A stretch of DNA of 62,954 bases, filler included. It is 8 parts of 8 records of this genome, joined end to end, with 100 filler letters (N's around TTAATTAATTAA, not from the genome) between each part and the next. Parts side by side here need not be neighbours in the genome. Positions count along the whole stretch, not along the records: positions 10,275 to 22,412 come from SRR31156797_29202; 7 more parts are not named here. One strand, given 5' to 3'. The notes under the pieces were generated by a model. It had not been told where the DNA came from, searched no databases, and saw nothing but the letters and a program-made list of their open reading frames with translations. Positions 8,103-55,661 of the stretch are shown one piece after another; position 1 is the first letter of the stretch, and each line of letters starts with the position of its first letter. A program made the translations under genes and the position numbers.

Positions 8103-9866
8103 TCAGAAATCTTTTCCCAGACGCCTCAGGGTGGCCTCCACGGGAGACAGGATGGTCTGCCCACCCTCTTCCAGTAGACGCTGCCGGGCCAGCAGTGAGA
8201 CATGGAGCTCACAGCAGGCCTCTCCATAGGAGATCCCCATAAGCTGGGAGATGATCCGGCTGCCCCTGTCCACCAGTTTTTTGTTGGTGGGATCCAGCTG
8301 TATCATCCAGTTCCCTCTGATCCGGCCCATCCCGGCCATGGCGGCGGTGCTCATGGTATTCAGGATGAGTTTGGCAGCCAGATGATGCCATAGGAAGACA
8401 GGGCTTTCCAGAAGCGCCAGGGGAATCGCAATGTCCCCTTCGCCCGCATCGCCACAGCGTCCGATCAGGATATTGATACGCTCCCCATCCGAAGGAGTCC
8501 GCGCCTCCTTATCCACAAGGATGTTGAGGAATACCCATCCTTCAGAGACCTTGCGGCTTTGATCCTCTTCCCGGCCGATCGTATACCGGGAGATCTCTCT
8601 CTCATCCAGCAGGGGGACGTTGCCGGCATATTCGGGAGCCCCCATATCCAGATAGTCCTGACGACTCCAGTCCAGCCCCCGGGGACGTCGCCGCAGCATC
8701 CGCAGCCAGGCCTCGGAACCGTCGTGTTTCGGATCTTTGGCAAAGGCCCAGGAGGGGGGGGCCTGCTCATCATCGCCGGGACGGAAGGGAGGGAGCATAA
8801 AGGTGGGGGAGCGCTCTGTGGTATCGCTGAAGATATCCAGGAGGTAATGCTCGGCCAGGTAGGTGACAAGCCCTCCCCTGCGGTAGACCTTCTCTTCCAG
8901 ATCGGTCCAGGCGGCCAGGCCCTCCAATGCCTCTCCCCTGCTAAGACTCTCCACCAGAAGGGAGAAGGACTCGGCATAGACCCCGGCGGAGGGGGCCTTT
9001 TCCCCCGTGGATTCCAGAAGCCCCGATTCCATGGCCGCCCCGACGACCAGCATCTCCATGGTGGTCGCCTGCATCCGGGTGGAACCGGTGAGGGCCATGG
9101 GCCCCGTGTACAGATCCAGAACGGTCACATCTTCGGCATCGATGACCCGCCGGCAGCGTTCCAGTCTCTCTCTTAAAAGCCCGGCGGGATTGTTAAAGAC
9201 GAAAAACACCTGACACTTTCTCCGCCTGGCCTCTTCGACCGTACCGATAACGGAGGAGGTCTCCCCCCCCTCGCTGATGGCGACCAGAAGATCCCCTTCG
9301 GACAGGTCCAGCTCTTCAACCTGACGAGCGCCGAAGGCCTCATAATCCTCAAAGTTTTCCACGGCCCTGATAAGGGCCCGGTCGCCTCCGGTCATGATGC
9401 TGCAGGCCAGGTCGGCCCGTTCCAGGTTCTCATCTCCCCCGGTCCCTTTCAGAACGGCGTCTCCGGGCGCCGCAGAGGCACGGTCCTCCCAGAACTGCCT
9501 CCACATCTCCTCCAGGATCATGCTCAGTCGCCCGGTGCTGCCGCATCCTGTGAAACAGACGCGCCTGTTTTCGCAAGCGCTGAGTTGGAAGGCCGAAACG
9601 AGGGATCGAAAGGGAGCGCTCAGCATGACGCGCCGGGCCACCGAAGGAAGATCCCTGTCCACATTCAGTATGGACCTGATGGCGTCCCGGCTGTCCCGGG
9701 CGGCCTCGGCGCTCATATCGCGGGTATAGGGGTGGGACTGTTCGGTGGGGATAAAGCCCAGGCGGAACTGACCGTCCTCTCTGATAAATCTTTCGGCCAT
9801 GCCTCGGGCCTGCGCCCTCAGCACCGGATCAGAAGCAAACTGGTTATAATCGTTGTTTTGAATCAT
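8103..9866 (-). CDS. Long SIS-domain protein, MurQ etherase / glucokinase-regulatory-protein-like (587 aa)
   Basis: PTEQSHP, GCGSTGRL, GGDRALIRAVENFED, TGPMALTGSTRM, KLILNTMST...GNWM...NKKLVDRG. Start reassigned to ATG 9866, which overlaps the upstream permease stop (ATGA). Confidence 0.75.
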   Translation of the reverse strand: MIQNNDYNQFASDPVLRAQARGMAERFIREDGQFRLGFIPTEQSHPYTRDMSAEAARDSRDAIRSILNVDRDLPSVARRVMLSAPFRSLVSAFQLSACENRRVCFTGCGSTGRLSMILEEMWRQFWEDRASAAPGDAVLKGTGGDENLERADLACSIMTGGDRALIRAVENFEDYEAFGARQVEELDLSEGDLLVAISEGGETSSVIGTVEEARRRKCQVFFVFNNPAGLLRERLERCRRVIDAEDVTVLDLYTGPMALTGSTRMQATTMEMLVVGAAMESGLLESTGEKAPSAGVYAESFSLLVESLSRGEALEGLAAWTDLEEKVYRRGGLVTYLAEHYLLDIFSDTTERSPTFMLPPFRPGDDEQAPPSWAFAKDPKHDGSEAWLRMLRRRPRGLDWSRQDYLDMGAPEYAGNVPLLDEREISRYTIGREEDQSRKVSEGWVFLNILVDKEARTPSDGERINILIGRCGDAGEGDIAIPLALLESPVFLWHHLAAKLILNTMSTAAMAGMGRIRGNWMIQLDPTNKKLVDRGSRIISQLMGISYGEACCELHVSLLARQRLLEEGGQTILSPVEATLRRLGKDF

Positions 9867-10174
9867 TTTAAAGCTCCTGCTGTCATTCCTTTGATAAAGT
9901 ACTTGGACAGAAATATGTAGAGAACAAGCATAGGCAGGATCGCGATGGAGAGGGAGGCGAACAGAAGATGCCAGCTGATTTGATACTGCCCGAAGAAGAC
10001 GCTCATCCCCAGAGGCAAAGTCTTCAAACGGTCCGACTGGATAAAGACCAGGGGAAAGAAGAAGTCGTTCCACACGGGGACGGCATTGTAAATGGTCACA
10101 AGGGCCAGGGAGGGAGCCGTCAGGGGCATGATGATCTGAGAGTAGACCGTCCACTCCCCCGCTCCGTCGATCCG
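9863..10174 (-). CDS. Carbohydrate ABC permease (MalG type), C-terminal part
   Basis: EAA-loop remnant RIDGAG, WNDFFFPLVF, TLPLG, KYFIKGMTAGALK; truncated at the contig edge. Confidence 0.88.
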   Translation of the reverse strand, partial: RIDGAGEWTVYSQIIMPLTAPSLALVTIYNAVPVWNDFFFPLVFIQSDRLKTLPLGMSVFFGQYQISWHLLFASLSIAILPMLVLYIFLSKYFIKGMTAGALK

Positions 10175-11100: not shown

Positions 11101-11472
11101 ATGCTGAAAACAGGAATGGAACACACCATTGAACACGAGGTACGCCCCGAAGACTCGGCGAGGAATATAGGCTCGGGGCTCCTGGACGTCTACTCCACCC
11201 CCGCCATGATCGCTCTGATGGAGAAGAGCGCCATGCTCCTGGTACAGGACTCCCTGGGGGAGGGACAGGGCACCGTAGGCGTCTCGGTGAACATCAAACA
11301 CCTGAAGGCCAGCAGGATCGGAGCTTCCGTATCGGCTAAAGCCGTCCTCACTGAGATAGACGGCAATCGTCTGGTCTTCGATCTTCAGGTCCGGGAGGGC
11401 GAAAAGATGATAGGCTCCGGCGAACACCAGCGCTTCATCATCGACGAGGTGAAATTTCTATCCAGGCTCTAA
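11101..11472 (+). CDS. Hotdog-fold thioesterase (FlK-like)
   Basis: GSGLLDVYSTPAMIALME, GTVG..VNIKHL, GEHQRFII. Confidence 0.88.
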   Translation: MLKTGMEHTIEHEVRPEDSARNIGSGLLDVYSTPAMIALMEKSAMLLVQDSLGEGQGTVGVSVNIKHLKASRIGASVSAKAVLTEIDGNRLVFDLQVREGEKMIGSGEHQRFIIDEVKFLSRL

Positions 11473-11761: not shown

Positions 11762-12081
11762 GCTTATTCAGAAACCTACAGAACCCACATCGATACCGAA
11801 AGCAGAACAGACCGCCAGTGACCTACTATGACCCCCACAGCATGGAGCGTCATTCAGGACATGGCGTAAGAAGCTCACCCAGTCAATAAAAAAAGAACAC
11901 CCACGCTTTTTAAAAATACGAAAAAAACAGTAGAAGGGAGATTCGCTGATGATATCCGCTAGTATCTTTGCACTATTTGCGCTTATTTTATATGAAAACT
12001 GATCCGGAGACCTGTTATCATAATCAAAAAACTTGAATATAATTGTTTACCTTTGTAATTACTTATTGAATCGGAGGCTTC

Positions 12082-13290
12082 ATGTCAAAGCTTATCAACG
12101 CAGGACTTATCAGCATGGGAGGCTACCTCCCCGCCAAGCCTGTACCTAAAAATAAAAAAGACGATCTGGTGGGGTTCCTGAGAAAAGAGACCCTCCTGCA
12201 TCATGAATATATTGATGAAATCGAAGAAACCGGGAATATGCCCGGCAGGATAGAAACGAACTATGACGGCTGGGAGAGCCAGCCCTGGTTTGACGAGTGG
12301 GTGGCTCAGATGCCCCCCAAGAAGCAGGCCAATCCCTTTCAGGGCGCCGTGGAAAGACGACGGGTACCCATGGATCCCGTTTCCATCAAGAAGTCGGTCC
12401 ATCCCCATCCCATGATCTCTTCCGACGCGGAAACCCTGGCCGCGGCCAAGGCTATCTACAACGCCGGCATAGACAAGGACGAGATAGATCTGGTCCTCTG
12501 CTCCTCACTGGTCCCCGACCTGGCGGTTCCCCAGAACGCCTCGCTGGTACAGCATAAGCTGGGACTGAAGAACGCGGGAGCCTACAATGTGGACACCTGC
12601 TGCTCCTCCTTCATCACTATGATGGAGATGGCCATGACCTATGTCCGGGCCGGTATGAAAAAGAAGGTTCTGATCGTAGGGAGCTCGCTGGACTCCCTTA
12701 TCAACGACAAAACCACCTATTACAGCGTCTACATCGGAGACGGAGCCGTCGCCGGTATCGTCGGAGAGGTGGAGGAAGGCTACGGCTATATAGCCTCCCA
12801 TTCCCACAGCATAGGAAAACGGCACAAGGCTATCATCTTTAAGAAGAGACAGCCCCAAATCTTTATCCCCACCAATCAGGGGCCCACCTACGAACAGGAG
12901 TTCGTCACCTTCTACGACAAGGAGATGCAGCGGGAAATCGCCCATGAGACCCAGAACGACATCATGCGGGTCACCGATAAGATGTTCGCCAAAACACCCT
13001 ACACAGCCAAAGACATCGACTTCCTCTCCACGCACCAGCCCGTTCCCTGGACACCCGAATCCTGGAGGGAATGCCTGAACGTTCCCAAGAACAAGATCTA
13101 CCAGTCCTTCGAAAAGTACGGCAACATCGCCGTAGCCTCATCGGCGGTCAACCATCTGGAGGCCGTTGAAAAGGGCTTGATGAAAGCGGGAGACAAGGCA
13201 CTGATCGTCTCGTCCGGCGTGGGCGAGAACCATATATGTCTCTTCCATAAGATATCCCCCACCCTGGTGAAAAACGTCAAGCATGGCTGA
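12082..13290 (+). CDS. 3-oxoacyl-ACP synthase III (FabH/KAS-III) family condensing enzyme, atypical
   Basis: Cys-His-Asn triad motifs DTCCSSF, STHQP, YGNIAVAS; IGDGAVA; long N-terminal insertion relative to FabH. Confidence 0.85.
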   Translation: MSKLINAGLISMGGYLPAKPVPKNKKDDLVGFLRKETLLHHEYIDEIEETGNMPGRIETNYDGWESQPWFDEWVAQMPPKKQANPFQGAVERRRVPMDPVSIKKSVHPHPMISSDAETLAAAKAIYNAGIDKDEIDLVLCSSLVPDLAVPQNASLVQHKLGLKNAGAYNVDTCCSSFITMMEMAMTYVRAGMKKKVLIVGSSLDSLINDKTTYYSVYIGDGAVAGIVGEVEEGYGYIASHSHSIGKRHKAIIFKKRQPQIFIPTNQGPTYEQEFVTFYDKEMQREIAHETQNDIMRVTDKMFAKTPYTAKDIDFLSTHQPVPWTPESWRECLNVPKNKIYQSFEKYGNIAVASSAVNHLEAVEKGLMKAGDKALIVSSGVGENHICLFHKISPTLVKNVKHG

Positions 13291-13696
13291 GAAGCGGGAT
13301 AATGGGCCCGTCATAGATCATATCGCCATCAAGGTCTCCCATATGGAGTCTTTTGCCGCAGCTATGGAAGAGATGGGCTATCCCATGACCATACCGCCGA
13401 AACAGTACGACGAGGTGGGAATGAAAATCGCGTTTATGGGCGCCGAGGGAGAGAGCCAAATGGAGCTGTTCGAGGTGACCTCCCCCGACAGCCCCGCCGC
13501 CGACTCCCCCGAGGGGATGCACCATATAGCCGTGGCGGTGGACGATATCGAAACAGCCCACAGGCAGATGAGCGAAAGCCCTCGCTTCGAGGTAATGGGG
13601 GAGATCCGTCAGGGGGCACACTCCCGAATCTTCTTCTACCGCCTGGCGAGCACTCGGGCCCCTCTTTTCGAATGTACGGAGAAACACAATGGATAA
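13283..13696 (+). CDS. VOC-family protein, methylmalonyl-CoA epimerase-like
   Basis: IDHIAI, ELFE, GMHHIAVAVDDI and C-terminal LFEC.E motifs; overlaps the upstream stop. Confidence 0.8.
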   Translation: MAEKRDNGPVIDHIAIKVSHMESFAAAMEEMGYPMTIPPKQYDEVGMKIAFMGAEGESQMELFEVTSPDSPAADSPEGMHHIAVAVDDIETAHRQMSESPRFEVMGEIRQGAHSRIFFYRLASTRAPLFECTEKHNG

Positions 13697-14474
13697 CACA
13701 CTCAAGGGGAAGACCGCCCTGGTCACCGGCGGAGCCGGGGGCATAGGACGGGAGATCAGCCGCACACTGGCGGCCGCAGGAGCCCGGGTCATCATCCTTT
13801 GCCGGGATGCGGCCAAGGCCGAAGAAACGCTGGCTTTCATTAAGAATGAGAACGGAAGCGCGGCCTATCACCTTATCGATCTTTCGGATGCCGCCGACAG
13901 AGAGGCAGGTCTGAAGAAGATCCTGCAAGACAGCGACGGCGTGGATATTCTTGTCAACAATGCGGGGATCTCCGGTTTTATGGGCCCCGTAGCCGACACC
14001 CCGCTGGAAGAACTCGATTCGGTACTTGAAGTCAATTTGAACGCCCCCTTCCATCTGGCTCAGATGCTTATTCCGGGCATGACCGGGAAGGGATTCGGGC
14101 GGATTATCAATATAAGCTCCGTCGCTCCCCGGGTGAATCCGGCCTGGACCACCACTTATAACATGAGCAAGGCCGCCCTCAACGCCTTTACGGCCTCCCT
14201 GTCCCGAGAGATCGCCTCAAGCGGTATCACCGTAAACGGCGTGGCTCCCGGGCTTGTCCTTACAGAGCGCATCCAGAAAAAACGTGTGCCCGGCCTGGCC
14301 GCTGAAAGAGGGATCAGCGAAGAGGAAGTACTGAACGGGATGAAGTCCAAATCGGATACCAGGCGCTTGACTACGGAAAGGGAGCTGGCTGAAACGGTAT
14401 TGTTTCTCTGCTCCGACGCCGCGCGGAACATAAGCGGCGAAACCATCGAAATGTCAGGCGGTTACCAGGGCTGA
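13689..14474 (+). CDS. Classical SDR oxidoreductase (FabG-like)
   Basis: TGGAGGIG, LVNNAG, INISS, YNMSK, VAPG. Confidence 0.93.
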   Translation: MDNTLKGKTALVTGGAGGIGREISRTLAAAGARVIILCRDAAKAEETLAFIKNENGSAAYHLIDLSDAADREAGLKKILQDSDGVDILVNNAGISGFMGPVADTPLEELDSVLEVNLNAPFHLAQMLIPGMTGKGFGRIINISSVAPRVNPAWTTTYNMSKAALNAFTASLSREIASSGITVNGVAPGLVLTERIQKKRVPGLAAERGISEEEVLNGMKSKSDTRRLTTERELAETVLFLCSDAARNISGETIEMSGGYQG

Positions 14475-14517: not shown

Positions 14518-14967
14518 ATGGTAGATTACGACAAGTTTAAATCTTTTATGGAAGAGTATTTCGATCACTACAGCAAATACGCCCAGGATGCGGAGACCAT
14601 GCCCAAAATGGACCGTTTCTGGACCGAAGATATCAAGGTGACCGCCTATTTTCAACTTCCCGGGGGCGAGTACCCCTTCCGGATGCCCGATCGCCGTGTA
14701 TGGCAGGACTTCCTGATCAAGGGACATCTGACCATATGGGAGAACCTTACACCCACGGATATGATGATCGATACGAAGCAGTTGAAGGCCACGGCTATGC
14801 TGAATGTGGTAAAATTTGACAGAAAGACCGATAAAAAGCTGATAGAACTGGACGGAATCGGTTATTATACTCTTAAGCAGAACGACGAGGGAGAGCTGCA
14901 GATCAAGAGCCTGGACTTCTTTACAGGCGACGCAGGAACCTTCGCCAGCCTCTACACACAGGAATAA
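14518..14967 (+). CDS. SnoaL/NTF2-like fold protein
   Basis: 149 aa; N-terminal helix F..EYFDHY, FWTEDI, then alternating beta-strand pattern ending in LQIKSLDFF; AAGGA RBS. Confidence 0.6.
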   Translation: MVDYDKFKSFMEEYFDHYSKYAQDAETMPKMDRFWTEDIKVTAYFQLPGGEYPFRMPDRRVWQDFLIKGHLTIWENLTPTDMMIDTKQLKATAMLNVVKFDRKTDKKLIELDGIGYYTLKQNDEGELQIKSLDFFTGDAGTFASLYTQE

Positions 14968-15023: not shown

Positions 15024-15461
15024 ATGAGCACGAAAGCCACAATCGTTACCGGTGTTATCGGAGAGGATGTCCATGTAACGGGCATCAGGATTCTGGAACA
15101 CGCCCTGCGCAGCGACGGATTCGATATACACTCCCTGGGAATCCACAACTCCCAGGAGGACTTCGTCGCCAAAGCGAAGGAAGTGGGCGCCGACGCCATC
15201 CTGATCTCCTCTCTGGCGGGACATGCGGAGATGCTGGTTCAGGGCTTTCGCGAGCGCTGCGACAAGGCGGGACTGACAGACATCAAGCTCTATATCGGAG
15301 GGCAGCTGGTCATCCATGCCGAGCCCTGGGAAGAGACGGAGAAGCGGTTTCTGGATCTGGGATTTACCAGCGTCGCCGTACCTTTCAATCTCCCCAAGAA
15401 CGTCATAGCCGAACTGAATGACGACCTCTGCTCCAAAGAGAGCGAAGGAATAGGCGCCTAA
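15024..15461 (+). CDS. Cobalamin-binding subunit, glutamate (methylaspartate) mutase S-like
   Basis: Base-off/His-on motif DVHVTG (DxHxxG), ISSLAGH (SxL), YIGGQL; colinear with GlmS/MutS. Confidence 0.92.
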   Translation: MSTKATIVTGVIGEDVHVTGIRILEHALRSDGFDIHSLGIHNSQEDFVAKAKEVGADAILISSLAGHAEMLVQGFRERCDKAGLTDIKLYIGGQLVIHAEPWEETEKRFLDLGFTSVAVPFNLPKNVIAELNDDLCSKESEGIGA

Positions 15462-15503: not shown

Positions 15504-16946
15504 TTGGAAATCTCAAATAAAACCTGGTCGGACGACTATTTTCAAAGGGAGCGCGAAAAAGTACTGGCCCAGTGGCCAACCGGCGAAGACGTAGACCTGG
15601 AAGACGCTTTCGCCTTCCATAACAGCCTTCCCGCGATGCAGAATGCGGCCCGCAAGGTCCTGAAGGCCCGGGCCGAAGGAAAGACCCTTCTCTGCCCCTC
15701 TCTGGGATCGGATACGGTGGAAAACCATAAGTCCCTTCTCCTTCATATGCAGGAGAAAGGGGAAGCCGATATCCTGACCTCCTACATAGACAGCCTGACC
15801 CGTAACTGCCGTTTCGAGATGGCAAGCCAGGGACTGATGCGCGCCGAAGCCTCGGGTCGTCCCGTATTGAATGGATTCCCTTTTGTCGTGCACGGCGTGG
15901 AAAAGGCGCGGGAGGTCATCCGGGCGGTCAAGCTGCCGTCCCTCCTCTTCGGCCCCACCCCCGACGCCAGACTCACCCATGAGATAGGTCTGGCCGGCGG
16001 TCAGAGCGGTTACTCCGGAGGCCCCCTGATATCCTTTTTCAATTACACAAAGGACGTCCGTCCCGAACAGATCATCCATAACTTCCAGTATGTGAACAGG
16101 TTGATGGGCTGTTACGAGAAGGCGGGAATCCCCATACTCTATTGCGTCAGCGGAGCCATGCCCTCCATCAGCCCTCCCTCGCTGATGATCGTTCCCGAGA
16201 TCATCGAGGTTCTTATAGCCGCAGGCCAGGGGGTCAAACACGTACAGCTGAACAACTGGCTCCAGGGCCACCTCGTACAGGATCTGGCCTATATAAAAAT
16301 ATTCAAGAAAATGGCCGATCACTATCTGAGGGAACTGGGATTCGGCGATGTGGAAACCACGACCTACAGCGTCAGCCCCACGGGACGCTTCCCTGTGGAG
16401 ACGGAAAGGGTTTACGCTCTGATCTCCCACTTCACAATGATAGGGATCCTGGGAGGGGTACAGGTCTGCGGTTCGAGAACCATAGACGAGGCCCTCCACA
16501 TCCCCACTCCCGAAGGTTCGGCAAACAGCTTCCGGAACGCCCGGATGTTCCTCAACATGCTCCAGCCCCAGGGCTTCGATGTCTCTCAAAACAAAGCCGT
16601 GGAGGCGGAAGCGGAGATAATGGAGCGGGAAGTCCGCTGTATGATGGACGCCATCCTGGAACTGGGAAAGGGCGACATTGTCAAGGGAACGGTAGCCGCC
16701 GTGGACAACGGCATGATGGATCAGCCCTATTCGACCTCCCAGCTGGTGAAGGGACAGGTTTTGGGAGTGAAGGACGATACGGGGGCCGCCAGGTACTTCG
16801 ATTTCGGCAGCCTCCCCCTTTCCGAGGATATAAAGGATTTTCACCGGGAGAAGGTAGGGGCCAGGGAAAAGGTTCTGGGCGAAAAAGTGGGATACGAGAC
16901 CATCATCGCCGACATGACAGCCATAAGCTCGGGCAGTATTCTTTGA
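15504..16946 (+). CDS. Glutamate (methylaspartate) mutase E-like catalytic subunit with remodelled substrate site
   Basis: QWPTG..VDL, IDSLTR, LNGFP, TPDARL, DEA..IPT, LELGKGD, ARY.DFG.LP are colinear with GlmE; TTG start behind AGGAG. Confidence 0.9.
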   Translation: MEISNKTWSDDYFQREREKVLAQWPTGEDVDLEDAFAFHNSLPAMQNAARKVLKARAEGKTLLCPSLGSDTVENHKSLLLHMQEKGEADILTSYIDSLTRNCRFEMASQGLMRAEASGRPVLNGFPFVVHGVEKAREVIRAVKLPSLLFGPTPDARLTHEIGLAGGQSGYSGGPLISFFNYTKDVRPEQIIHNFQYVNRLMGCYEKAGIPILYCVSGAMPSISPPSLMIVPEIIEVLIAAGQGVKHVQLNNWLQGHLVQDLAYIKIFKKMADHYLRELGFGDVETTTYSVSPTGRFPVETERVYALISHFTMIGILGGVQVCGSRTIDEALHIPTPEGSANSFRNARMFLNMLQPQGFDVSQNKAVEAEAEIMEREVRCMMDAILELGKGDIVKGTVAAVDNGMMDQPYSTSQLVKGQVLGVKDDTGAARYFDFGSLPLSEDIKDFHREKVGAREKVLGEKVGYETIIADMTAISSGSIL

Positions 16947-16982
16947 GTTGCCCAATCAAAAGGAATCAGGTATTATTTCATT

Positions 16983-17411
16983 ATGTTTGTTCTGGACAAC
17001 TGCGTTTACTATATAGCCTCACTGGGACTGAAGAAGGTAACCGACTCTTATAACGATACCATCAAGTCCTTCGGGGCCACCCGTGTCCAGTGGATAGCCC
17101 TCTACTATATCGAGAAGTCCGAGGGAATCAGCCAGTCGGCCCTGGCAGAGATGATGCACTCCCAGGAGACCACCATCGCCCGCCTGGTCGGCAGACTGGT
17201 AAAGAACGGTCTTGTGGAGCGGAGGACCGACAGGGAAGACCGCAGGGCGGTAAAGCTCTACTGCACCGACGAGGGGCATGCCCTGTACCAGCGACTGCTC
17301 CCCGTCTGCAACGGCTTCTATCAGAAAATCATCAGAGACATACCTCAGGACGAGCTGGACGTGTTCCGTTCGGTCCTTGACCGCCTGGTCGATAACAGCC
17401 GAAAAGATTAA
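16983..17411 (+). CDS. MarR-family transcriptional regulator
   Basis: TRVQWIAL, SQSALA, TIARLVGRLVKNGLVER..DREDRR..KLYCTDEG. Confidence 0.92.
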   Translation: MFVLDNCVYYIASLGLKKVTDSYNDTIKSFGATRVQWIALYYIEKSEGISQSALAEMMHSQETTIARLVGRLVKNGLVERRTDREDRRAVKLYCTDEGHALYQRLLPVCNGFYQKIIRDIPQDELDVFRSVLDRLVDNSRKD

Positions 17412-17495: not shown

Positions 17496-17930
17496 ATGAA
17501 ACTGTCTACAAAGTCCAGATACGCGGCCCGCTTGATGGTCAATCTGGCATGGGAATACGAACAGGGGCCGGTACAGCTGAATGAGATAGCCCGGAGGGAA
17601 GAGATCTCTGAGAAGTATCTGAGCCAGATCGTTATAACACTCAGAGGCGCCGGACTCATACAGTCCGTAAGAGGAGCCAGAGGGGGCTATCTTCTCGGGA
17701 AGAGGCCTTCGGATATATCCCTGGCGGATATCGTCGGGGTAATGGAAGGGGGACTGAATATTGTAGACTGTCTGGAGCAGGATCCCCGATGCGGCCGATC
17801 GGATTCCTGCATAACGCGCTACGTCTGGGACAGAGTCAGCAAGGCCGTGCGAGAAACATTGGAAGATATCAGCCTTGAGGAACTGGCCGGAAAGGTGAAC
17901 AAGAGCGACGCTCCCATGTTTTTTATCTGA
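17496..17930 (+). CDS. Rrf2-family regulator (IscR/CymR-like, three-Cys motif)
   Basis: [29 protein letters not shown]-x6-C-x5-C. Confidence 0.92.
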
Positions 17931-17971
17931 AGAAGGATCCCCGGAGGGATCATCGCTGTGAAGGAGTTACC

Positions 17972-18895
17972 ATGAGCAGAATAGCAGAGAACATTACGGA
18001 ACTGGTGGGGAACACCCCCCTGGTAAGATTGAATAAGGCGGAAGGCGAAGCCGATATCCTTTTAAAACTGGAGTTTTTCAACCCCCTCGGAAGCGTCAAA
18101 GACCGTATAGGAAAGAACATGATCGTACGGGCCGAGGAAAAGGGTCTGATCAAAGAGGGAACGACCATCATAGAGCCCACCAGCGGCAACACGGGAATAG
18201 CCCTGGCCTATGTCTCGGCTCAGAGGGGTTACAGGCTGATACTGACCATGCCGGACAGTATGAGTATTGAAAGACGGAAGCTGCTCAAGTTTCTGGGCGC
18301 CGAACTCGTCCTTACTCCCGGAAGCGAAGGGATGGGCGGGGCCATAAGAAAGGCGGAAGAACTGAAAGGGGAGATTGACAATTCCATAATCCTCCAGCAG
18401 TTTGAAAACCCCGCCAATCCGGAGATCCACCGCCTGACCACGGGACCCGAGATATGGGAATCCACCGGAGGGAAGGTGGACATCTTCGTCGCCGGCGTGG
18501 GCACAGGCGGTACGGTTACGGGCAGCGGAGAATTCCTGAAAAGCAAGAATCCCGATGTCCAGGTCTATGCGGTGGAACCGGACGGCTCCCCCGTTCTTTC
18601 AGGGGGATCGCCGGGTCCCCATAAGATCCAGGGAATAGGAGCGGGCTTCGTTCCCGGGATCCTCAATACTGAGGTCTACGACGGCGTTCTGAAAATCTCA
18701 GCCGAGGAAGCCGGAGAAACCTCACGAAGACTGGCCAGGGAAGAAGGGATTCTGGTCGGCATATCCGCCGGGGGCAATGTCAGAGCCGCGGAGATCCTCG
18801 CCTCCCATCCCGAGAACAAGGGAAAAACCATCGTCACCGTTGCCTGTGACACGGGCGAGCGCTATCTGAGTACCTGGCTCTTCGACAACATCTGA
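17972..18895 (+). CDS. cysK: Cysteine synthase A
   Basis: [55 protein letters not shown]. Confidence 0.97.
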
Positions 18896-19057
18896 AGCGC
18901 TTTTACAGAATGAAATCCTGAGGGAAGGACCTCAGACCCTATACAGAAAATTCACCGGGGTTCCCTGCGAGCCTCGGTGATATAAAAACATGGGATATGA
19001 TCGGAAACATAGCAAGGCTTCTGAAGAGCTTTGAAAAGAAAGAAAGGAGGCAATCAC

Positions 19058-20353
19058 ATGCCATACAATGAAATAGAGAAACCGGGATTTGAGACCATAG
19101 CCCTTCACGGCGGACAGACCATAGACGCCACCAAGTCCAGGGCCGTCCCCCTTCATCGTACCACAGCCTATCTGTTCGACTCAGCAGAACATGCGCAGAA
19201 CCTGTTTGCCCTGAAGGAACTGGGAAACATCTATACCAGACTGGGGAATCCCACCCAGGACGTACTGGAGCAGAGGATGGCGGCCCTGGAAGGGGGAGCC
19301 GCGGCGCTGGCGTTGGCCTCGGGAACAAACGCCATATTCTATACGGTGATCAATATCTGTGCCGCCGGGGACGAGGTGGTAGCCAGTTCCAGACTCTACG
19401 GCGGAACCCATACCATGTTTAACGATATCCTTCCGGGCTTCGGGATAAAAGTGCGCTTCGCCGATCCCACCGATCCGGAGGCATTGAAAGCGGCGGTCAA
19501 CGTAAGGACGAGGATGCTCTATACGGAAACCATAGGGAACCCCTCCCTGGATATGGCGGATCTGGATATGTTCGCGTCCTTGGCGGAAGAGAATAAGATC
19601 CCCCTGGTAGTGGACTCCACCTTTACTCCGCCCTGCCTCCTGCGCCCTCTGGACCACGGTGCTCACATCGTCGTACACTCCATGACCAAGTGGATCGGCG
19701 GACACGGAACGGCCATAGGCGGTATCGTAATCGATTCGGGCCGCTTCAACTGGCAGGAAAGCAAATTCAAGCTCTATAACGAGCCCGACGGCGGGTACCA
19801 CGGGCTGCGCTTCGCCCACGACCTGGGAGAACTCAATCCTCTGGCCTTTATCCTGCGCATGCGAACGGTGCCCCTGCGCAACCTGGGCGGGGCCATCTCT
19901 CCGGACAACTGCTGGATGTTCCTCCAGGGACTGGAAACCCTTTCGCTGCGGATGGAACGACACTCCGAAAACGCCCTGGCGGTAGCGGAGTTCCTGAGCG
20001 CCCATGACGAGGTGGCCTGGGTACGATATCCCGGCCTGCGGGAAGATCCTTCCCACGCAGAGGCTTCCCGCTATATGAAGAAGGGATACGGCGGGATGGT
20101 CGTCTTCGGCATCAAGGCCGGCAGAGAGGCGGGACAGCATTTCATCGACAGCCTGAAGCTCTTCTCCCATGTGGCGAATGTGGGAGACGCCAAGAGCCTG
20201 GCCATCCATCCGGGCTCGACCACCCATTCCCAGCTCAGCGATGAGCATCTGAAAGCGGCGGGGATCTCCGGAGAGATGATTCGTCTCTCCATTGGTCTGG
20301 AGAACATCGAAGACATAAAGAAGGACCTGGATCAGGCTCTCAGAGCTCTTTAA
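19058..20353 (+). CDS. metY: O-acetylhomoserine sulfhydrylase / aminocarboxypropyltransferase
   Basis: [51 protein letters not shown]; start at ATG 19058 after AGGAGG. Confidence 0.95.
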
Positions 20354-20484: not shown

Positions 20485-22209
20485 ATGGACGAAGAGAAGA
20501 ATACAACACCCGATCTGCCGCAATTTTATCACATGGAATCTTTCAGACGGGAGGAATTTCTCTCCCAGCTGGGAAGTTTCACCCAGGTCCAGTATCAACT
20601 GTTCCACAACCTCTGCGACTTCTGGTCACCCGTCCTGGAGTATAACCAGTTCATACTGAAGAGCTCAAAATCCTTTCTGGCATCCAACAACCAGCTGGAA
20701 CTCCTGATGGACAAGCTGAAGGCCGCCCACATAGGCCTTCTGCAGTACGCCCTGATCGACGGAGAGCTGAAAGCCCACAGGATCATCCTGAGCGATAAGA
20801 ACGATTTCTCCTTCTATTACTATCTCTGTGAAGACCTTCTGGCCAGGCAGATCCTGAACAGCAAGCAGCCCTTTATGACAGAGAAGGCCTTCGATGACGA
20901 GGGGATAGCCCTGCCCAAGGATATGATAACGATCCTGGAATCACGGATGCTCAGCCCGGGCTTCGCGGAAGCATCCGGAGAGAAGCCCCTCATCATCGGT
21001 GTTCCCCGGAAAATGAAGGATCCCCTTCTTCTCCCTTCGGGCATGATCGAGGAGTTTATCACCGCCCTGGTCACCCATATCCGTTCAGAAATGACCAACA
21101 CGAGCCTGATGGAGTACCTGTCCAGAATTACGAATCGGAAGATCAGTGAACTACAGAAGGGATTGACCAAAAGGGAGCCTTCTTTCTGGATCCCCATCTG
21201 CCAGGCCCTCGCCGAGCATAAAGAAGAGATTAAGCTGCGCTTCAAGGGGCTCAATCCTCTGCTCTTTACCAGCGTGCAACTGCTTCAAACCTATTTCCAG
21301 AACAGCCTGAACGAGATAAAAGAGGCCCAGATCGTTGAGCAGGAAAAGATGAAGGCAAGGGATGAACTGATCAGGGAATTCAGAAACAAGGAAGCCTCCT
21401 GGACCCCCGTGACCCTGCTTGACGAAAGGCTGAAGGAAATGGAGGAGACCTGGAAAGGATTCCGGGAGGAATTCAGAACGGCGGCTTTGGTCAGAGCTGA
21501 GAACAAGGCCCTGCCCCCCCTGATCGTTATCAACAATATGCTGATTCATAAGGATTTCCTATTCCGCTACTTCACGCGGGAGACGGGGCTTCTCCGCAAG
21601 GACCTCTTCTTTAACTACCAGGAGCAGATGAGAGACCTGCTTCGCCGCAACAGGACCGAACGCTACAGCCAGTTCTTCAGCAGAAACAATTTCCGGGCCG
21701 ACATCCTGGATCAGATCAAGGACAAAGACCTTCAGCTCTGGGAACTGCTTCAGAAGCCGACCAAGGTGGCGGAAGCGGCTTTCCACTACCTGCAGACCAT
21801 AAAAGGAATCAAGAAAAACTCACGAATCAAGGACGCCCTCGGCCTCTATTTTCAGAGCGATATGAAGACCTTCAGAAACATCGACACCATGATGCAGCTG
21901 AAACTTCTGACCCTCTTCGAGCAGGCCTACAAGGAACTGGGCTGGTGGAGTCGCTTCATCCTCAGGATTACGGGCCGATACGATAGCTATATCGGCATGT
22001 TCTCCGATGAATCCCCTCAAAGGGAACCATACAGGAGTCTCTCCCGGCGGAAGAAAAGAAAACGGAGTCCCCGCATCCCCAAAGCGGCGAAGTCGAAGAT
22101 GGATCAGAGAAACTACTCGGCCAGGGAGAAGAAAAGAGCCTGGGAGGAGTTCGGCCAGGCCGTACAGAACGAGAGCCTGCAACAGCCGGAGGAACCCTCC
22201 CCGGACTGA
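20485..22209 (+). CDS. Hypothetical protein (574 aa, helical, basic C-terminal tail)
   Basis: Long open frame with codon usage like its neighbours; no recognisable motif. Confidence 0.75.
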   Translation: MDEEKNTTPDLPQFYHMESFRREEFLSQLGSFTQVQYQLFHNLCDFWSPVLEYNQFILKSSKSFLASNNQLELLMDKLKAAHIGLLQYALIDGELKAHRIILSDKNDFSFYYYLCEDLLARQILNSKQPFMTEKAFDDEGIALPKDMITILESRMLSPGFAEASGEKPLIIGVPRKMKDPLLLPSGMIEEFITALVTHIRSEMTNTSLMEYLSRITNRKISELQKGLTKREPSFWIPICQALAEHKEEIKLRFKGLNPLLFTSVQLLQTYFQNSLNEIKEAQIVEQEKMKARDELIREFRNKEASWTPVTLLDERLKEMEETWKGFREEFRTAALVRAENKALPPLIVINNMLIHKDFLFRYFTRETGLLRKDLFFNYQEQMRDLLRRNRTERYSQFFSRNNFRADILDQIKDKDLQLWELLQKPTKVAEAAFHYLQTIKGIKKNSRIKDALGLYFQSDMKTFRNIDTMMQLKLLTLFEQAYKELGWWSRFILRITGRYDSYIGMFSDESPQREPYRSLSRRKKRKRSPRIPKAAKSKMDQRNYSAREKKRAWEEFGQAVQNESLQQPEEPSPD

Positions 22210-25534: not shown

Positions 25535-26959
25535 TTACCTGCCGGTTGCGGCTGAGATATAGGCTTGGAGTTCCTTGTCCAGGGCCTTGTCTATGAGGCT
25601 GTCCGGTGCAGTGTCGATGATCTCCTTGTATTTTAGGTTTGCCTTTCTAATGATATCCTGCTCCTCAAGTCCGGACCATTTATCATAGGAGTTCCAGTCT
25701 GCCAGATCCGGCTGCCAGGCGTTCCTGCAATGCTCCAGGGTGGTTTTGTGAAAGAGAAATTCACTCTTGTTCTGAACCACCTCTTGAATGACCCCCAGAT
25801 ATTCATCCATGTCGGAGGTGTTGATCCCGTCCCGGAAACGGTACATCCGGGAGAGCATTTCAACGTCAAGGATGAATTTTTCATAGGAGGTGACCATGAG
25901 GTTTTCCAGGCTGCCCAGGGTATTGGACATGACATTGGTGCCCACCAGGGTGGCGGTGAGCAGGCCCTGCATGGTTTCATACCCTGCCTGATAGTCAATG
26001 GCTTTTGAGCTTGAGATGCCGCACTGGCTCCGGGCCGGCAGCTTGTAAAAATCCTTGACCATCTGGCAGCAGGCGGCAAAAAGGAGGGCGGATTCCGGGG
26101 AACCGCATTCCCAGGTTGCCAGCTGCATGTTTCCGAACACCGTACTGCCCGAGACAATGACGGGAAGGCCGGGCCGGGTCGCCTGGCAGAGGACGACCCC
26201 GCCTAGCAGTTCCGCGGCGTACTGGATCAGGGTTCCGCTGAGGCTGATGGGGGCGGTAATGCCGGACATGGCCGCCGGGATAATGACCATGGGCTGGTTC
26301 CATTTGGCATAGGTGAGGATATTCTGGCAGGAGGTTTCAACATAGGTCAGGGGACTGACCGGGGTGGATACGCCCCAGGTGCAGTAATGGTCCCGGAAAT
26401 ACCCTTTTCGGCCAAAGGGGAGTTCCAGCATGCCAATGAGGGTATCCAGTTTTTGGGGATCCTCTTCACCCAGGGGGGCCAGGATGGGTTTATCGGTGTT
26501 TTTGATGAACTCATAGGCAGACCAGAGGTCTTTTTCCGCCACATCCACATCCGATGGATTAATGGGCTCAAACCCGGCGAGCTTGAGCACATCGTAGTGC
26601 TGGGTGATTTTCTGGATGTTGGCCACGTCTTTAAGGGTGCCCGGCCGCCGGCCCCCGTCCAGGTCGCTGATGAAGACCTCCCCTCCGTTGGGGTTGACCA
26701 CCAGGCCGTCCCCGCCGATGGTCACGGAATGGTCCGGGTTCCTGGCCTCAAGAAGAAAGCTGTCAGGGCAGGTGGCCAGGCTTTTTTCCACAAGCTGCCG
26801 GGGAAAAAAGACCCGTTTCCCCGAGACCCGGGCCCCGTGATTTTTCAAAAGATCCCTTGCCGTTTCATTGAGATAGGCAATGCCGGTTTCCTCTAATAGT
26901 TTTAATGCGGATTCGTGTATTTTTCGGCAGTCGTCGCCGGTTAAAAAACGAAGATTCAT
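25535..26959 (-). CDS. MttB-superfamily corrinoid methyltransferase, non-pyrrolysine
   Basis: IHESALKLLEETG, ARNPDHSVTIGG, SPL, GITAPISLSG, GSPE, SSSKAIDYQAGYE, SYEKFILD; no in-frame TAG. Start at 26959 (GGAGG RBS) or 26971. Confidence 0.92.
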   Translation of the reverse strand: MNLRFLTGDDCRKIHESALKLLEETGIAYLNETARDLLKNHGARVSGKRVFFPRQLVEKSLATCPDSFLLEARNPDHSVTIGGDGLVVNPNGGEVFISDLDGGRRPGTLKDVANIQKITQHYDVLKLAGFEPINPSDVDVAEKDLWSAYEFIKNTDKPILAPLGEEDPQKLDTLIGMLELPFGRKGYFRDHYCTWGVSTPVSPLTYVETSCQNILTYAKWNQPMVIIPAAMSGITAPISLSGTLIQYAAELLGGVVLCQATRPGLPVIVSGSTVFGNMQLATWECGSPESALLFAACCQMVKDFYKLPARSQCGISSSKAIDYQAGYETMQGLLTATLVGTNVMSNTLGSLENLMVTSYEKFILDVEMLSRMYRFRDGINTSDMDEYLGVIQEVVQNKSEFLFHKTTLEHCRNAWQPDLADWNSYDKWSGLEEQDIIRKANLKYKEIIDTAPDSLIDKALDKELQAYISAATGR

Positions 26960-27019
26960 CTCTTCCTCCATAGGGTTGATTTAGGGGTGTTTGGGGTCGC
27001 ATGAATTATGGGGCCGGCA

Positions 27020-28830: not shown

Positions 28831-29145
28831 ATGGATTTTAATACAATACAGTCAACATTGGTTGCCTGCGACCAGAATAAACTCATAAACTTGGTAAACG
28901 ACGCCGTTGAAACGGGTGTTCCGGCCTCAGATATTCTTTCCCGGGGGTTGATCGCGGGCATGGATATTGTCGGGGAGAAAATGGAAAGCGGGGATATGTT
29001 CATTCCCGAAGTTCTTATGGCCGCCCAGGCCATGGCAGGTTGTGTTGAGATTCTCAAACCCCTGCTCGGGGAAGGGGACGGCGCTTCAACGGCCTCTGTG
29101 ATCATCGGCACCGTAAAAGGGGATCTCCACGACATCGGGAAAAAC
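28831..29145 (+). CDS. Methyltransferase cognate corrinoid protein (MttC/MtbC-like), N-terminal part
   Basis: Cap domain GLIAGMDIVGEK...FIPEVLMAAQAM; GTVKGDLHDIGKN (DxHxxG); truncated by contig end. Confidence 0.93.
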
Positions 29146-29245
29146 NNNNNNNNNNNNNNNNNNNNNNNNNNNNNNNNNNNNNNNNNNNNTTAATTAATTA
29201 ANNNNNNNNNNNNNNNNNNNNNNNNNNNNNNNNNNNNNNNNNNNN
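29146..29245. other. Artificial contig linker
   Basis: N run with TTAATTAATTAA. Confidence 0.99.
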
Positions 29246-29568: not shown

Positions 29569-30651
29569 ATGAGCAAAACAGCAACAAACGCAGGGGTCAT
29601 AGCCACAACTGGCTTTGGATTGCAAAAAAACATAGCCATATTCTGCCTACTGGAAGACTATCACCAATTTAAAGACAGAAAATACTCAATATTCATGGAA
29701 CATCATGATGATGTTGTTTTTTGTTTTTTTACCCCCGACGACAGAATTGAAGAGTTAAAAGCTCTTCAATCCAAAAAAAACAGCAAAGAATGGCTCATTA
29801 ATAAAGAGCTAGCAGAGATTGTAGCAAAACTTCTTGAAACAGGATCAAAGCTCGCTAAGGACGTAACTGTTCCTAAAACTAAAAACTGCCAAAAAACACT
29901 TATCTTTGCCTCAAACCAATCCTTAAGATTAAGCTCTGGACGCAAGAAAGATGATGCCACAAAACGCATTAATGAAGAGTGCGTTCATTGCTTATACACA
30001 GATTTACCTGATAAAATTCAAAAGAAATTTATCGAAAAGATAGGCAACACAGGTTTTAACAATGAATTAAAGCACCTATCATTTACTTACATTGACTTGC
30101 CTGCCACTATCAAAGGCCAAAAAGAAACCTTATCCGGTAAACTCCAAACATTATTTGGGAATACAATCACGGACCACACGGCGGCCATCGATACGATCAT
30201 TCATCTGCTAGGAAAGACAGAAACTACTTACAATCAAAACAGAGAAGCAAAACTTGTTGATAAAACGAAGCAGGTCACACACTTAGAAATCGAAGACGTT
30301 TTTAATCTATGTAAATCAAAGGCAAAATCCTTTGACTACTGGAGAAAGCAAGCCATCAGCATTTCAAAAGCTTTAAGACTATTCCCACGGGATAAAGAAA
30401 GCTTTAAAGAAAATTTCCGAAACGCATTCGATTATTTTAAGAGCAAAGAGCAAGCTGAACACTTAAGGATTCTCGATTTCGTAAAAGATAATTACAAAAA
30501 ATACGAAGAGATTGAAGAAATCGACAGTATCCAGAACCTATTCAATGCCTTTACTGACAGCAATAGTTCTCCCTTAGAAGAACTCACTTTAAAATCAATA
30601 ATATATGCCGCATATTTTGAAGTGACATATAAAAGAGATACTCAGCAATGA
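29569..30651 (+). CDS. lmuA: Cap4/DUF4297-like dsDNA nuclease effector (Lamassu LmuA-like)
   Basis: N-terminal AG..A..GF.LQ...A, EHHDDV and QSK motifs (PD-(D/E)xK variant); ATGA-coupled to an SMC-like ATPase. Confidence 0.75.
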   Translation: MSKTATNAGVIATTGFGLQKNIAIFCLLEDYHQFKDRKYSIFMEHHDDVVFCFFTPDDRIEELKALQSKKNSKEWLINKELAEIVAKLLETGSKLAKDVTVPKTKNCQKTLIFASNQSLRLSSGRKKDDATKRINEECVHCLYTDLPDKIQKKFIEKIGNTGFNNELKHLSFTYIDLPATIKGQKETLSGKLQTLFGNTITDHTAAIDTIIHLLGKTETTYNQNREAKLVDKTKQVTHLEIEDVFNLCKSKAKSFDYWRKQAISISKALRLFPRDKESFKENFRNAFDYFKSKEQAEHLRILDFVKDNYKKYEEIEEIDSIQNLFNAFTDSNSSPLEELTLKSIIYAAYFEVTYKRDTQQ

Positions 30652-54332: not shown

Positions 54333-55661
54333 ATGGCTGTTGATTATGTAATTCCAGGAAATCATGGTTTTAAGGATCCGGCATCCATTCCCGAAGGCTA
54401 TGTCTTTCGGGATCAACGCGGTCGTTACCCCTGGTGGGTAAAGTCCGTGGACAGGATTACGACTCAAGTGGATTTATCTAACTGGCAGCGCAAGACGACT
54501 GACAGAATCATGAAGATGGTGTTCGGCCCTGACCAACCGGAAATGGCGGCCCGGCTGGAAAAATCTCGCCCGAAAATGATCCAAAGAATGAAAGACGAAG
54601 TTCCGGGCCATCGCTTGCAGGATTTTGCTCTCCATTACGCTTCGGAAACTTATTTCGCCGCCGGAGTCGATCTTTTTAAAGCCGGAATGATTTTAGAGTT
54701 CCTTAATATCCGTAAAACCGTTGGCGCGTTAATCCATCCGCCTGAAGAGCTTGGGATGGAACCATGGAAAGGGACCGCGTTGGAAGCGTCGGCCATGCTG
54801 GAAAAAGCAGCCGTTCATCTGGGCGCGTCCCAGGTAGGCTTTACGGCCCTGAATCCCTATAACCTTGAACACATGGTCCATATAGATTCCGAAGTGGAAA
54901 AGATTAAAACCACTGAAGACGGGCGCATACTGGTTCCGGAAAGTATGCGCTATGTCGTTGTTCTGGCCGGGCAGGTCCCTTTTGACGCCGCGGCGAGATC
55001 TCCCAGCCAGATCGGAGACGCGGCCGACCGGGCCGGATACGAAAATCGCGGCATGGTCGTGGAAAGAATGATCAATTTTATCCGAGGCCTGGGTTATAAG
55101 GCTAAAATGATCCCCGGTTTTATGCCGCCCGCGATCCCCCTGGCCCTGATGGCCGGCCTGGGAGAAATGGGCCGGACCAATCGCCTTATATCACCCCTTT
55201 ACGGCGGCGCGGTCCGCCTGGAAGCTATTTTGACCGACCTTCCCCTGGCACTGGACAAACCCATAGATTTTGGCCTTCAAAAATTCTGCAGGGGATGTAA
55301 AAAGTGCGCCAAATCCTGTCCAGCCGGCGCAATAAGCATGGATGACGAACCCACATGGGAGCCTTACGGCGACTGTTCCACCGGCGGTAAAAAAGTGTAT
55401 TACGACAATTACGATAAATGCTCATCCTTCACCGGAAGCATGCATCTTTATTGCGCTGCCTGCCTGGCATCCTGCCCCTGGAACAAGGACGACAAAACAG
55501 TATTGCATTCGGTTGTTAAGGCTGTGTCCGCAAAGGCGCCGGCTTTGTCTCCATTCATGGTCTTTATGGACGATTTGTTCGGATACGGCCTGGCGCCGAA
55601 AGAAAAACTGAACGATTGGTGGGAACTCGACCTGCCCCCCAAGGGATTGAGAAGCTTCTGA
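54333..55661 (+). CDS. rdhA: Reductive dehalogenase catalytic subunit, no Tat signal
   Basis: PWWVK.VD..T, W.GT..E..AML..AA..LGA..VG, GY, AGLGEMGR, TDLPL..DKPIDFG, FCxxCxxCxxxCP and C-x10-CxxCxxxCPW. Confidence 0.9.
   Translation: MAVDYVIPGNHGFKDPASIPEGYVFRDQRGRYPWWVKSVDRITTQVDLSNWQRKTTDRIMKMVFGPDQPEMAARLEKSRPKMIQRMKDEVPGHRLQDFALHYASETYFAAGVDLFKAGMILEFLNIRKTVGALIHPPEELGMEPWKGTALEASAMLEKAAVHLGASQVGFTALNPYNLEHMVHIDSEVEKIKTTEDGRILVPESMRYVVVLAGQVPFDAAARSPSQIGDAADRAGYENRGMVVERMINFIRGLGYKAKMIPGFMPPAIPLALMAGLGEMGRTNRLISPLYGGAVRLEAILTDLPLALDKPIDFGLQKFCRGCKKCAKSCPAGAISMDDEPTWEPYGDCSTGGKKVYYDNYDKCSSFTGSMHLYCAACLASCPWNKDDKTVLHSVVKAVSAKAPALSPFMVFMDDLFGYGLAPKEKLNDWWELDLPPKGLRSF

Follow-up and report, generated by a model that had tools for sequence, protein, structure and literature searches.

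Background

To our knowledge, very few carbon-skeleton rearrangements that depend on adenosylcobalamin (AdoCbl) are known, and the additions of the last two decades were all made on the methylmalonyl-CoA mutase (MCM) scaffold. In the MCM reaction, a carbonyl carbon undergoes an AdoCbl-dependent 1,2-shift next to a carboxylate that is anchored by an arginine. The 2-methyleneglutarate mutase of Eubacterium barkeri is an AdoCbl carbon-skeleton mutase that acts on a free carboxylic acid with no amino group and moves an sp2 group; its substrate is a dicarboxylate and it is a single polypeptide, unlike the two-subunit system considered here, and a literature search gave nothing on whether it belongs to PF06368, the family of the glutamate mutase E subunit. 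The glutamate mutase of Clostridium cochlearium has separate sigma (GlmS) and epsilon (GlmE) subunits (1CB7, 1CCW, 1I9C and 6H9E). The subject of the current study is a homologous pair, the S and E subunits encoded at 15024..15461 and 15504..16946 on the plus strand of a stretch of DNA of 62,954 nucleotides, the whole of which is referred to as the window.

According to PMC9545868, Arg66, Arg149 and Arg100 constitute the "arginine claw" of GlmE; the glycyl moiety, which migrates, is bound by Arg66, Arg149 and Glu171, the acrylate part is bound by Arg100 together with Tyr177, and Tyr181 touches the methylene radical carbon. The initial annotation of the E gene had placed Arg66 and Arg149 on the α-carboxylate and Glu171 on the α-amine, and had assigned Tyr181, with Arg100, to the γ-carboxylate, which the paper gives to Arg100 and Tyr177.

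The analysis led us to propose that S and E form a two-subunit AdoCbl carbon-skeleton mutase on the GlmS/GlmE scaffold that is not a glutamate mutase and that would move a neutral, oxygen-bearing group in place of glycyl, preferably in γ-oxo or γ-hydroxy acids, a reading to which we assign a probability of roughly 0.55. The broader claim, that the pair is a functional AdoCbl mutase whose substrate is a carboxylic acid other than glutamate, is considered highly probable.

The E and S subunits

The E open reading frame (ORF; 15504-16946, 480 residues, the stop codon ending at 16946) begins with TTG, 7 nt downstream of an AGGAGA sequence, and matched Pfam Met_asp_mut_E (PF06368) with 381 bits. 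A phmmer search of the PDB retrieved C. cochlearium GlmE (6h9e_B, E=4e-102; 1cb7_B, E=7e-101), with residues 1-479 of the query aligned to residues 1-478. Colinearity without gaps had been claimed for the first ~180 residues and in fact extends up to residue 218. The AlphaFold2 model of E (pLDDT 91.4) superimposed on 1cb7_B with a TM-score of 0.97 and an rmsd of 1.4 Å over 481 columns at 36% identity; the next-best folds, the lysine/ornithine aminomutases and methylmalonyl-CoA mutases, gave a TM-score of about 0.5. The TM-score of 0.97 indicates that the residue correspondences are structural and not an artifact of the alignment.

The substrate site of GlmE is extensively altered in E. The QPR66AG motif is replaced by CPS66LG, QAR149H150G by LLF149G150P and NE171GG by YS171GG, so that Arg66 is Ser, Arg149 and His150 are Phe and Gly (followed by Pro151), and Glu171 is Ser. 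In addition, Thr94 is replaced by Tyr, Tyr177 by Ser, and the FHQWMG segment by SVSPTG. The residues that E has in common with GlmE are Arg100 (in SLTR), Gly68, Asn123 and Tyr181, and, where TPHEA aligns with TIDEA, the glutamate that contacts the adenosyl group (Glu330 in GlmE, Glu329 in E); Lys326 is represented by Arg325. These replacements and retentions had all been listed in the initial annotation, and every one of them was present in the phmmer alignment; neither this formal alignment nor the superposition of the model on 1cb7_B restored the arginines or the glutamate.

Judged from the alignment, the whole glycyl-binding half of the GlmE site is gone, and of the acrylate half Arg100 is kept and Tyr177 lost. 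The earlier suggestion that one carboxylate anchor remains thus holds for Arg100 but not for its partner: with Ser in place of Tyr177, only half of the Arg100/Tyr177 anchor described in PMC9545868 is retained.

The S subunit (145 residues) matched NF002612 with 156 bits and GlmS (1i9c_A) with E=2.4e-34. Like the corresponding subunit of the base-off/His-on AdoCbl mutases, it is a B12-binding Rossmann protein with a DxHxxG motif, which had also been noted at the outset and reads Asp15-x-His17-x-x-Gly20. The system therefore resembles C. cochlearium glutamate mutase in its separate sigma and epsilon subunits, the shared fold, the DxHxxG motif, Arg100, Asn123, Gly68, Tyr181 and the adenosyl glutamate. 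It differs from it in the R66S, R149F, H150G, E171S, Y177S, T94Y and K326R replacements, in having no mutL gene between S and E, and in its operon partners.

An Rfam scan of the window gave no matches, so there is no cobalamin riboswitch in it. Other corrinoid-linked genes of the window encode an MttB-family methyltransferase (25535-26971, minus strand), a B12-binding_2 protein (28831-29193, plus strand) and a reductive-dehalogenase-like protein with 4Fe-4S domains (54333-55661, plus strand); corrinoids thus appear to be in wide use in this organism.

Conservation of the clade

Homologs were taken from the best 120 of the 142 proteins found by a word-indexed search at E<=1e-20, and 115 of 121 sequences were aligned, the six shorter than 440 residues having been dropped. 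The signature is carried by 74 of the 115 aligned homologs, which are 50-91% identical to the query. All 74 have Ser66, Tyr94, Arg100, Asn123, Gly150, Pro151 and Tyr181; position 149 is always Phe, Trp, Leu, Met or Tyr; and Ser171 and Ser177 are present in 96% and 95%, respectively. Chance falls far short of explaining such a pattern. Sequences with the canonical Arg66/Arg149/His150/Glu171 set were found only at 37-39% identity to the query (P0102, P0104 and P0109). In a FastTree phylogeny of the 115 sequences, built from an alignment that still included the columns of the trait itself, the 74 members lie on one side of a branch with an SH-like support of 100. The combination of Ser66 and Ser171 with an aromatic or hydrophobic residue at position 149 marks a clade.

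The E genes are free of stop codons in all 17 cases examined (the window and 16 other loci), and comparison of the E ORF with that of its closest relative, L001, gave dN 0.052 and dS 1.02, a dN/dS of about 0.05. With intact genes, a low dN/dS and a well-supported branch of 74 members, the substitutions are not private to a decaying gene, a possibility raised at the outset. These results show that the clade is monophyletic, is under purifying selection and is scattered over at least five phyla.

Sixteen positions are fixed differently in the clade and in 36 canonical sequences, the clade residues being Ser66, Gly150, Ser171, Ser177, Phe178, Asn180, Tyr213, Ser216, Met219, Pro220, Asn250, Thr293, Arg325, Tyr409, Thr411 and Lys423. 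The clade-specific changes beyond the claw include Tyr94, Phe178, Asn180, Tyr213, Ser216 and Thr293, and every member of the clade has Arg at the equivalent of Lys326. The remodeled cavity has hydroxyl groups from Ser66, Ser171, Ser177, Ser216, Thr293, Tyr94 and Tyr213 and hydrophobic side chains at positions 149 (Phe/Trp), 67 (Leu/Ser), 64 (Cys/Trp/Phe), 178 (Phe) and 219 (Met), and has no charge. Arg100, Asn123, Tyr181 and Glu329, the residue that contacts the adenosyl group, are invariant in the 74 clade and 36 canonical sequences alike, as are 34 more positions.

Remodeling of the cavity on this scale, at 16 positions, and the fact that no activity is known would also be expected if the protein were not a mutase at all, but another kind of AdoCbl radical enzyme (an eliminase or a reductase-like enzyme) or a dead B12-binding module. 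We consider this very unlikely, since strong purifying selection has preserved the cofactor and adenosyl features and Arg100, every one of the closest folds is that of an AdoCbl isomerase, and the gene for the reactivase MutL is linked to the system in several loci. In L007 and L014 it lies directly 3' of E, and it is also found inside the type II operon described below, as a mutase reactivase would be.

Metatranscriptome contigs from four libraries of four studies contained pieces of the cassette to which the E gene belongs at 95-100% identity. Some of these pieces lie in E, such as 15983-16555 in X6 and 16140-16549 in X8, and others span the VOC/SDR and SDR/NTF2 junctions. Because RNA libraries may contain DNA, these contigs give a weak hint of transcription. 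Uncovered stretches such as 16575-16948 are uninformative.

Distribution and genomic background

When a single genome of each species was scanned, 17 loci were obtained, 16 of which belong to the clade. The hosts of the clade loci are Oceanispirochaeta, Spirochaeta, Spirochaetales, Desulfobacter, Aminicenantes, Bacteroidales, Deferrimicrobium, Acidobacteriota and a metagenome-assembled genome (MAG) of the Clostridia. The clade was found in one of 401 sampled genomes of the Spirochaetota and in one of 401 from the phylum of the Desulfobacter MAG (G004), the only hit both times being the centre genome; it is rare in these two samples, which means rarity there and not absence. A literature search found no paper on the clade, on PF06368 enzymes that act on substrates other than glutamate or on the cassette, although most glutamate mutase papers in subscription journals were outside its reach.

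Each of five cassette-bearing genomes has exactly one PF06368 gene, that of the cassette. Methylaspartate ammonia-lyase (MAAL_C, PF07476) scored above the cut-off in none of the five, and the 62.9-kb window has none. MutL was found in one of the five genomes and PF01642 mutases in two, none of the latter among the three spirochaetes; the window has neither of these two families. The operon partners have no connection with glutamate fermentation.

These data bear on the possibility that E is still a mutase of glutamate, or of a closely related amino-dicarboxylate, which is held by other residues. The fold is identical, and the E ORF scores 392.7 bits with the NCBIfam equivalog TIGR01503, whose cut-off of 390.1 it thus passes. 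Both arginines of the upper claw, His150 and Glu171 have, however, disappeared from all 74 clade members or almost all of them, the ammonia-lyase is lacking in the five genomes, and the partners are not genes of glutamate fermentation, so that a glutamate mutase is extremely improbable. We regard the TIGR01503 match, which has a margin of 2.6 bits, as a false positive. It nevertheless causes annotation pipelines to label the ORF methylaspartate mutase, as the initial annotation had foreseen, and members of the clade are named "methylaspartate mutase subunit E" by both NCBI and JGI.

The type I cassette

In the window, E is the last of six genes that lie on one strand in the order KAS III-like, VOC, SDR, NTF2-like, S and E, an arrangement designated type I. 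The first gene (12082..13290, plus strand) encodes a condensing enzyme of 402 residues that resembles KAS III (FabH), with an N-terminal extension of about 60 residues; its Cys174, His318 and Asn348 align with the positions of the FabH triad. It is followed by a VOC-fold protein (Glyoxalase_4; 13283..13696, plus strand) similar to methylmalonyl-CoA epimerase (MCE; PDB 3oa4 and the human enzyme 3rmu), which scored 51.8 bits against TIGR03081, below the cut-off of 115. A short-chain dehydrogenase/reductase (SDR; 13689..14474, plus strand, 261 residues) has the 3-hydroxybutyrate dehydrogenases and the SDR domains of 8hjw as its nearest solved relatives. The KAS III-like and VOC genes, and the VOC and SDR genes, overlap by 8 nt. 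The fourth protein (14518..14967, plus strand, 149 residues) has an NTF2/SnoaL-like fold and no Pfam match; its model (pLDDT 94.6) matched SdnG, ActVI-ORFA and polyketide-cyclase-like, KSI-like and LEH structures in Foldseek. About 40 nt 5' of the first gene is a sigma-70-like promoter (TTATCA-17-TATAAT; 12015..12043, plus strand) that agrees with the consensus at 10 of 12 positions, a consensus match only. Control by sigma-54 was rejected: TGGCAC-N5-TTGC occurs three times where 3.3 matches are expected, and never near the operon.

Synteny was examined by tblastn with the neighboring proteins of the window. Upstream DNA is present in 15 loci, and 13 of these have all six genes arranged as in the window, the VOC match in L010 being weak (40.8 bits). 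The other two are copies on a single Aminicenantes contig, KASIII_A-VOC-NTF2-E_A and KASIII_B-SDR-S-E_B, in which the KAS III-like and E genes were duplicated together and the accessory genes were split between the copies. The two E proteins differ at the variable cavity positions 64, 65, 67, 148, 177 and 291.

The candidate identification of the SDR as a 3-hydroxybutyrate dehydrogenase did not hold, as it has Ser, Ala and Thr at the positions aligned to Gln94, His144 and Lys152 of 1wmb, which we take to be the carboxylate ligands of those enzymes.

The partnership of a proposed mutase with a VOC-fold protein is analogous, but only analogous, to that of MCM with its epimerase: E has no PF01642 match and a TM-score of about 0.5 to MCM chains. 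Alternatively, the substrate may be a thioester, bound to CoA or to a carrier, whose free carboxylate rests on Arg100, for example a compound like succinyl- or methylmalonyl-CoA or like 3-oxoadipyl-CoA. The loss of the bulky Arg66, His150, Glu171 and Tyr177 would then open a channel for the pantetheine arm, and the enzyme would be a counterpart of the acyl-CoA mutases on the GlmE scaffold, one that cooperates with the MCE-like epimerase and acts either before or after the KAS III-like enzyme. The mutase and the adjoining VOC protein do mirror the MCM/MCE pair, thioesters of CoA or acyl carrier protein (ACP) are the substrates of KAS III, the conserved cassette has no thioesterase, PF01642 mutases are missing from all three cassette-bearing spirochaete genomes, and the type II operon has an acyl-CoA ligase. 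On the other hand, the Desulfobacter and Aminicenantes genomes have three to four PF01642 matches beside the cassette, so the latter is not a simple replacement of MCM; the type II operon begins with a transporter of free acids and places its ligase after the mutase; and the solved structure of GlmE has a closed cavity in its barrel. A thioester substrate is thus possible but, in our estimate, unlikely.

The flanks of the cassette are otherwise unrelated between lineages. In the window, a MarR-family regulator is encoded directly 3' of E (16983..17411, plus strand); it is common only to the closest relative, L001, and is a possible local regulator that stands outside the conserved cassette. 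Farther 3' (17496-20353, plus strand) are a CymR-like Rrf2 regulator, CysK and O-acetylhomoserine sulfhydrylase, whose synteny is likewise limited to L001. A FlK-family hotdog thioesterase (PF22636, 118 bits; 11101-11472, plus strand) lies 600 nt 5' of the cassette and is shared only by L001 (73% identity); it could supply the missing thioesterase step in the lineage of the window. Two ORFs of 574 residues with no Pfam matches (20485-22209 and 30648-32372) were compared and are not related to each other.

In the Aminicenantes and Clostridia loci, the genes on the 3' side encode MutL, FAD_binding_2 oxidoreductases, B12-radical-SAM enzymes, an O-methyltransferase and a family of 137-residue proteins (A3), whose suspected relationship to the NTF2-like proteins was rejected (hhalign probability 0.5%). 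On the Aminicenantes contig (L012 4354-16984 and L016 6309-15468) the two cassette copies are 6.8 kb apart, with a single VOC, NTF2-like, SDR and S gene, and each of three B12-binding radical-SAM genes, located between and 3' of the copies, adjoins a member of the 137-residue family; with its FAD_binding_2 oxidoreductase, O-methyltransferase and DUF4388 response regulator, the region looks like a biosynthetic gene cluster. On contig C52 of genome G005 (L013 10557-16321 and L023), a defense-like block made up of Roc/DUF4365, AAA/PD-(D/E)XK, SIR2-TIR and a STAND NTPase with WD40 repeats separates the cassette from a MutL/FAD_binding_2/SpoIIAA-like/B12-radical-SAM/DUF4388 module about 20 kb away, and it looks as if an island had been inserted into a once-contiguous cluster.

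The type II operon

A metagenome scan that started at a sister group yielded two loci, L026 and L027, with a different gene arrangement, designated type II. The E protein is 53% identical to that of the window and has the full signature (Phe64, Cys65, Ser66, Ser67, Tyr94, Arg100, Trp149, Gly150, Pro151, Ser171, Ser177 and Asp291); both loci of the Phe64/Trp149/Asp291 subclade have this type of operon. In L027 the order is TetR, the TRAP components DctP, DctQ and DctM, an NTF2-like protein, S, E, two NTF2-like proteins, MutL, an SDR, an AMP-binding acyl-CoA ligase, a BbsA-like DUF35 protein and a BbsB/SCPx-like thiolase, which is truncated where the contig stops. The contig of L026 stops after TRAP genes, S, E and two NTF2-like genes, so the TetR, MutL, SDR, ligase, DUF35 and thiolase genes are known from L027 only. 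When the two operon types are compared, the common core consists of NTF2-like, S, E and SDR.

TRAP systems import compounds that bear a carboxylate. The type II binding protein (L027 3802-4848) matched structures of the DctP family, and from one alignment we take the arginine in its LKGLKIRA stretch to be the carboxylate-binding arginine. The BbsA/BbsB-like pair of DUF35 protein and thiolase presumably acts on α-branched 3-oxoacyl-CoA. The context of type II is clearly catabolic. The "larger or more hydrophobic monocarboxylate" that the initial annotation had suggested as substrate fits the TRAP transporter and the acyl-CoA ligase.

The same DUF35/thiolase pair, the FAD_binding_2 reductase-like genes and O-methyltransferase near the Aminicenantes cassettes, the MarR regulator of the window and the gain of Tyr94, Phe/Trp149, Phe178 and Tyr213 in the cavity could also be accounted for if the migrating group were aryl or vinyl, as in the interconversion of 3-arylpropionate and 2-arylpropionate by a neophyl-type shift in anaerobic phenylpropanoid metabolism. 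Such a reaction would leave the KAS III-like enzyme, the MCE-like epimerase and the SDR unexplained as conserved partners. Moreover, the type II pieces have no acyl-CoA dehydrogenase or hydratase, and the many new Ser, Thr and Tyr hydroxyls are better suited to an oxygenated group. An aryl or vinyl shift is accordingly doubtful.

Proposed reaction

The preferred reading remains a mutase of γ-oxo or γ-hydroxy acids. Because Arg100 is kept, the stationary part of the substrate is expected to be -CH2-COO(-), as in GlmE. The adenosyl radical would take a hydrogen next to the carboxylate held by Arg100, and a neutral, oxygen-bearing group X would migrate in place of glycyl,

X-CH2-CH2-COO(-) ⇌ CH3-CH(X)-COO(-)

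A cavity with many hydroxyls and hydrophobic side chains but no charge suits a neutral oxygenated X. Acyl (a ketone) or 1-hydroxyalkyl would be preferred, and the reaction would then be the ketone analog of that catalyzed by MCM. The assignment to this specific class, the interconversion of γ-oxo/γ-hydroxy acids and 2-methyl-β-oxo/β-hydroxy acids, is tentative.

Roles for the partners may be suggested on the same basis. The VOC protein would be a C2 epimerase, which fits a C2 that has a carboxylate on one side and a carbonyl on the other, and the SDR would convert 3-hydroxy forms to 3-oxo forms and back. The condensing enzyme that heads the type I cassette would make the 2-methyl-3-oxo skeleton from acyl-CoAs by decarboxylative condensation. 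In type II, the CoA ligase would be followed by the thiolase, tolerant of the α-branch, which would cleave 2-methyl-3-oxoacyl-CoA to propionyl-CoA and acyl-CoA. Type I would thus build the acid, and type II would consume an imported one.

Several considerations weigh against this reading. Of the two ligands of the retained carboxylate, Tyr177 is lost, and which of the replaced residues line the cavity is deduced from the GlmE literature and the alignment. KAS III enzymes normally yield thioesters, and the conserved cassette has no thioesterase, ACP or CoA ligase. The SDR lacks the presumed carboxylate ligands and so does not speak for a short 3-oxo acid in free form. Type I could run in the catabolic direction instead, and type II is represented by two metagenome contigs, each cut at an end.

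The PF06368 family

An exhaustive HMMER search of representatives at 50% identity found 774 proteins at E<=1e-3, of which 186 also reached E<=1e-30, and the 119 full-length sequences among the best 150 (P0122-P0271) were surveyed. Arg66, Arg100, Arg149, His150 and Glu171 are all present in 33 of the 119; another 25 have Arg66 and Arg149 with Glu171 absent, and 27 have neither Arg66 nor Arg/Lys149. Arg100 is found in 112, Asn123 in 110 and the adenosyl glutamate in 111. By these counts the clade is one example of a constant radical machinery and lower clamp combined with a variable upper half of the cavity, and PF06368 looks multi-specific. In about 30 representatives S and E are fused, in one order or the other, into a single protein of roughly 620-695 residues. 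The divergent members that were looked up are also labeled methylaspartate mutase.

A sister group with Met66 and Trp149-Gly150-Pro151 (L024 and L025) resembles the clade in keeping Arg100, Asn123 and the adenosyl glutamate, in its divergent upper claw and in its methylaspartate mutase label. It differs from it (42% identity) in the gene order E-MutL-S and in its neighbors, an enoate-reductase-like Oxidored_FMN+Pyr_redox_2 protein, two SDRs, MmgE/PrpD and DUF2284, and is probably another unknown mutase pathway. In L017, of a further subfamily (37% identity), E is split into overlapping frames (9001-9570 and 9561-10130); the split is a frameshift or an assembly error, and the locus was left out of the analysis for this reason.

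Conclusions

The wider picture suggested by these results is more tentative still than the reaction class itself. The clade may catalyze an AdoCbl-dependent 1,2-shift that is new to biology, of the Dowd-Beckwith type, in which a ketone or carbinol carbon moves on a free acid; the type I operon would be the maker and the type II operon the consumer of one hidden class of metabolites exchanged among anaerobes; and PF06368, in which only about a quarter of the sequence clusters have the glutamate signature, would hold a large stock of B12 mutases still to be discovered.

If true, a second specificity for the glutamate mutase scaffold would mean a new reaction and an oxygen-free route by which branched carbon skeletons are made or broken. 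For members of the clade, the practice of reading "methylaspartate mutase" as glutamate fermentation in spirochaete, Aminicenantes, Bacteroidales and Desulfobacter MAGs may be wrong.

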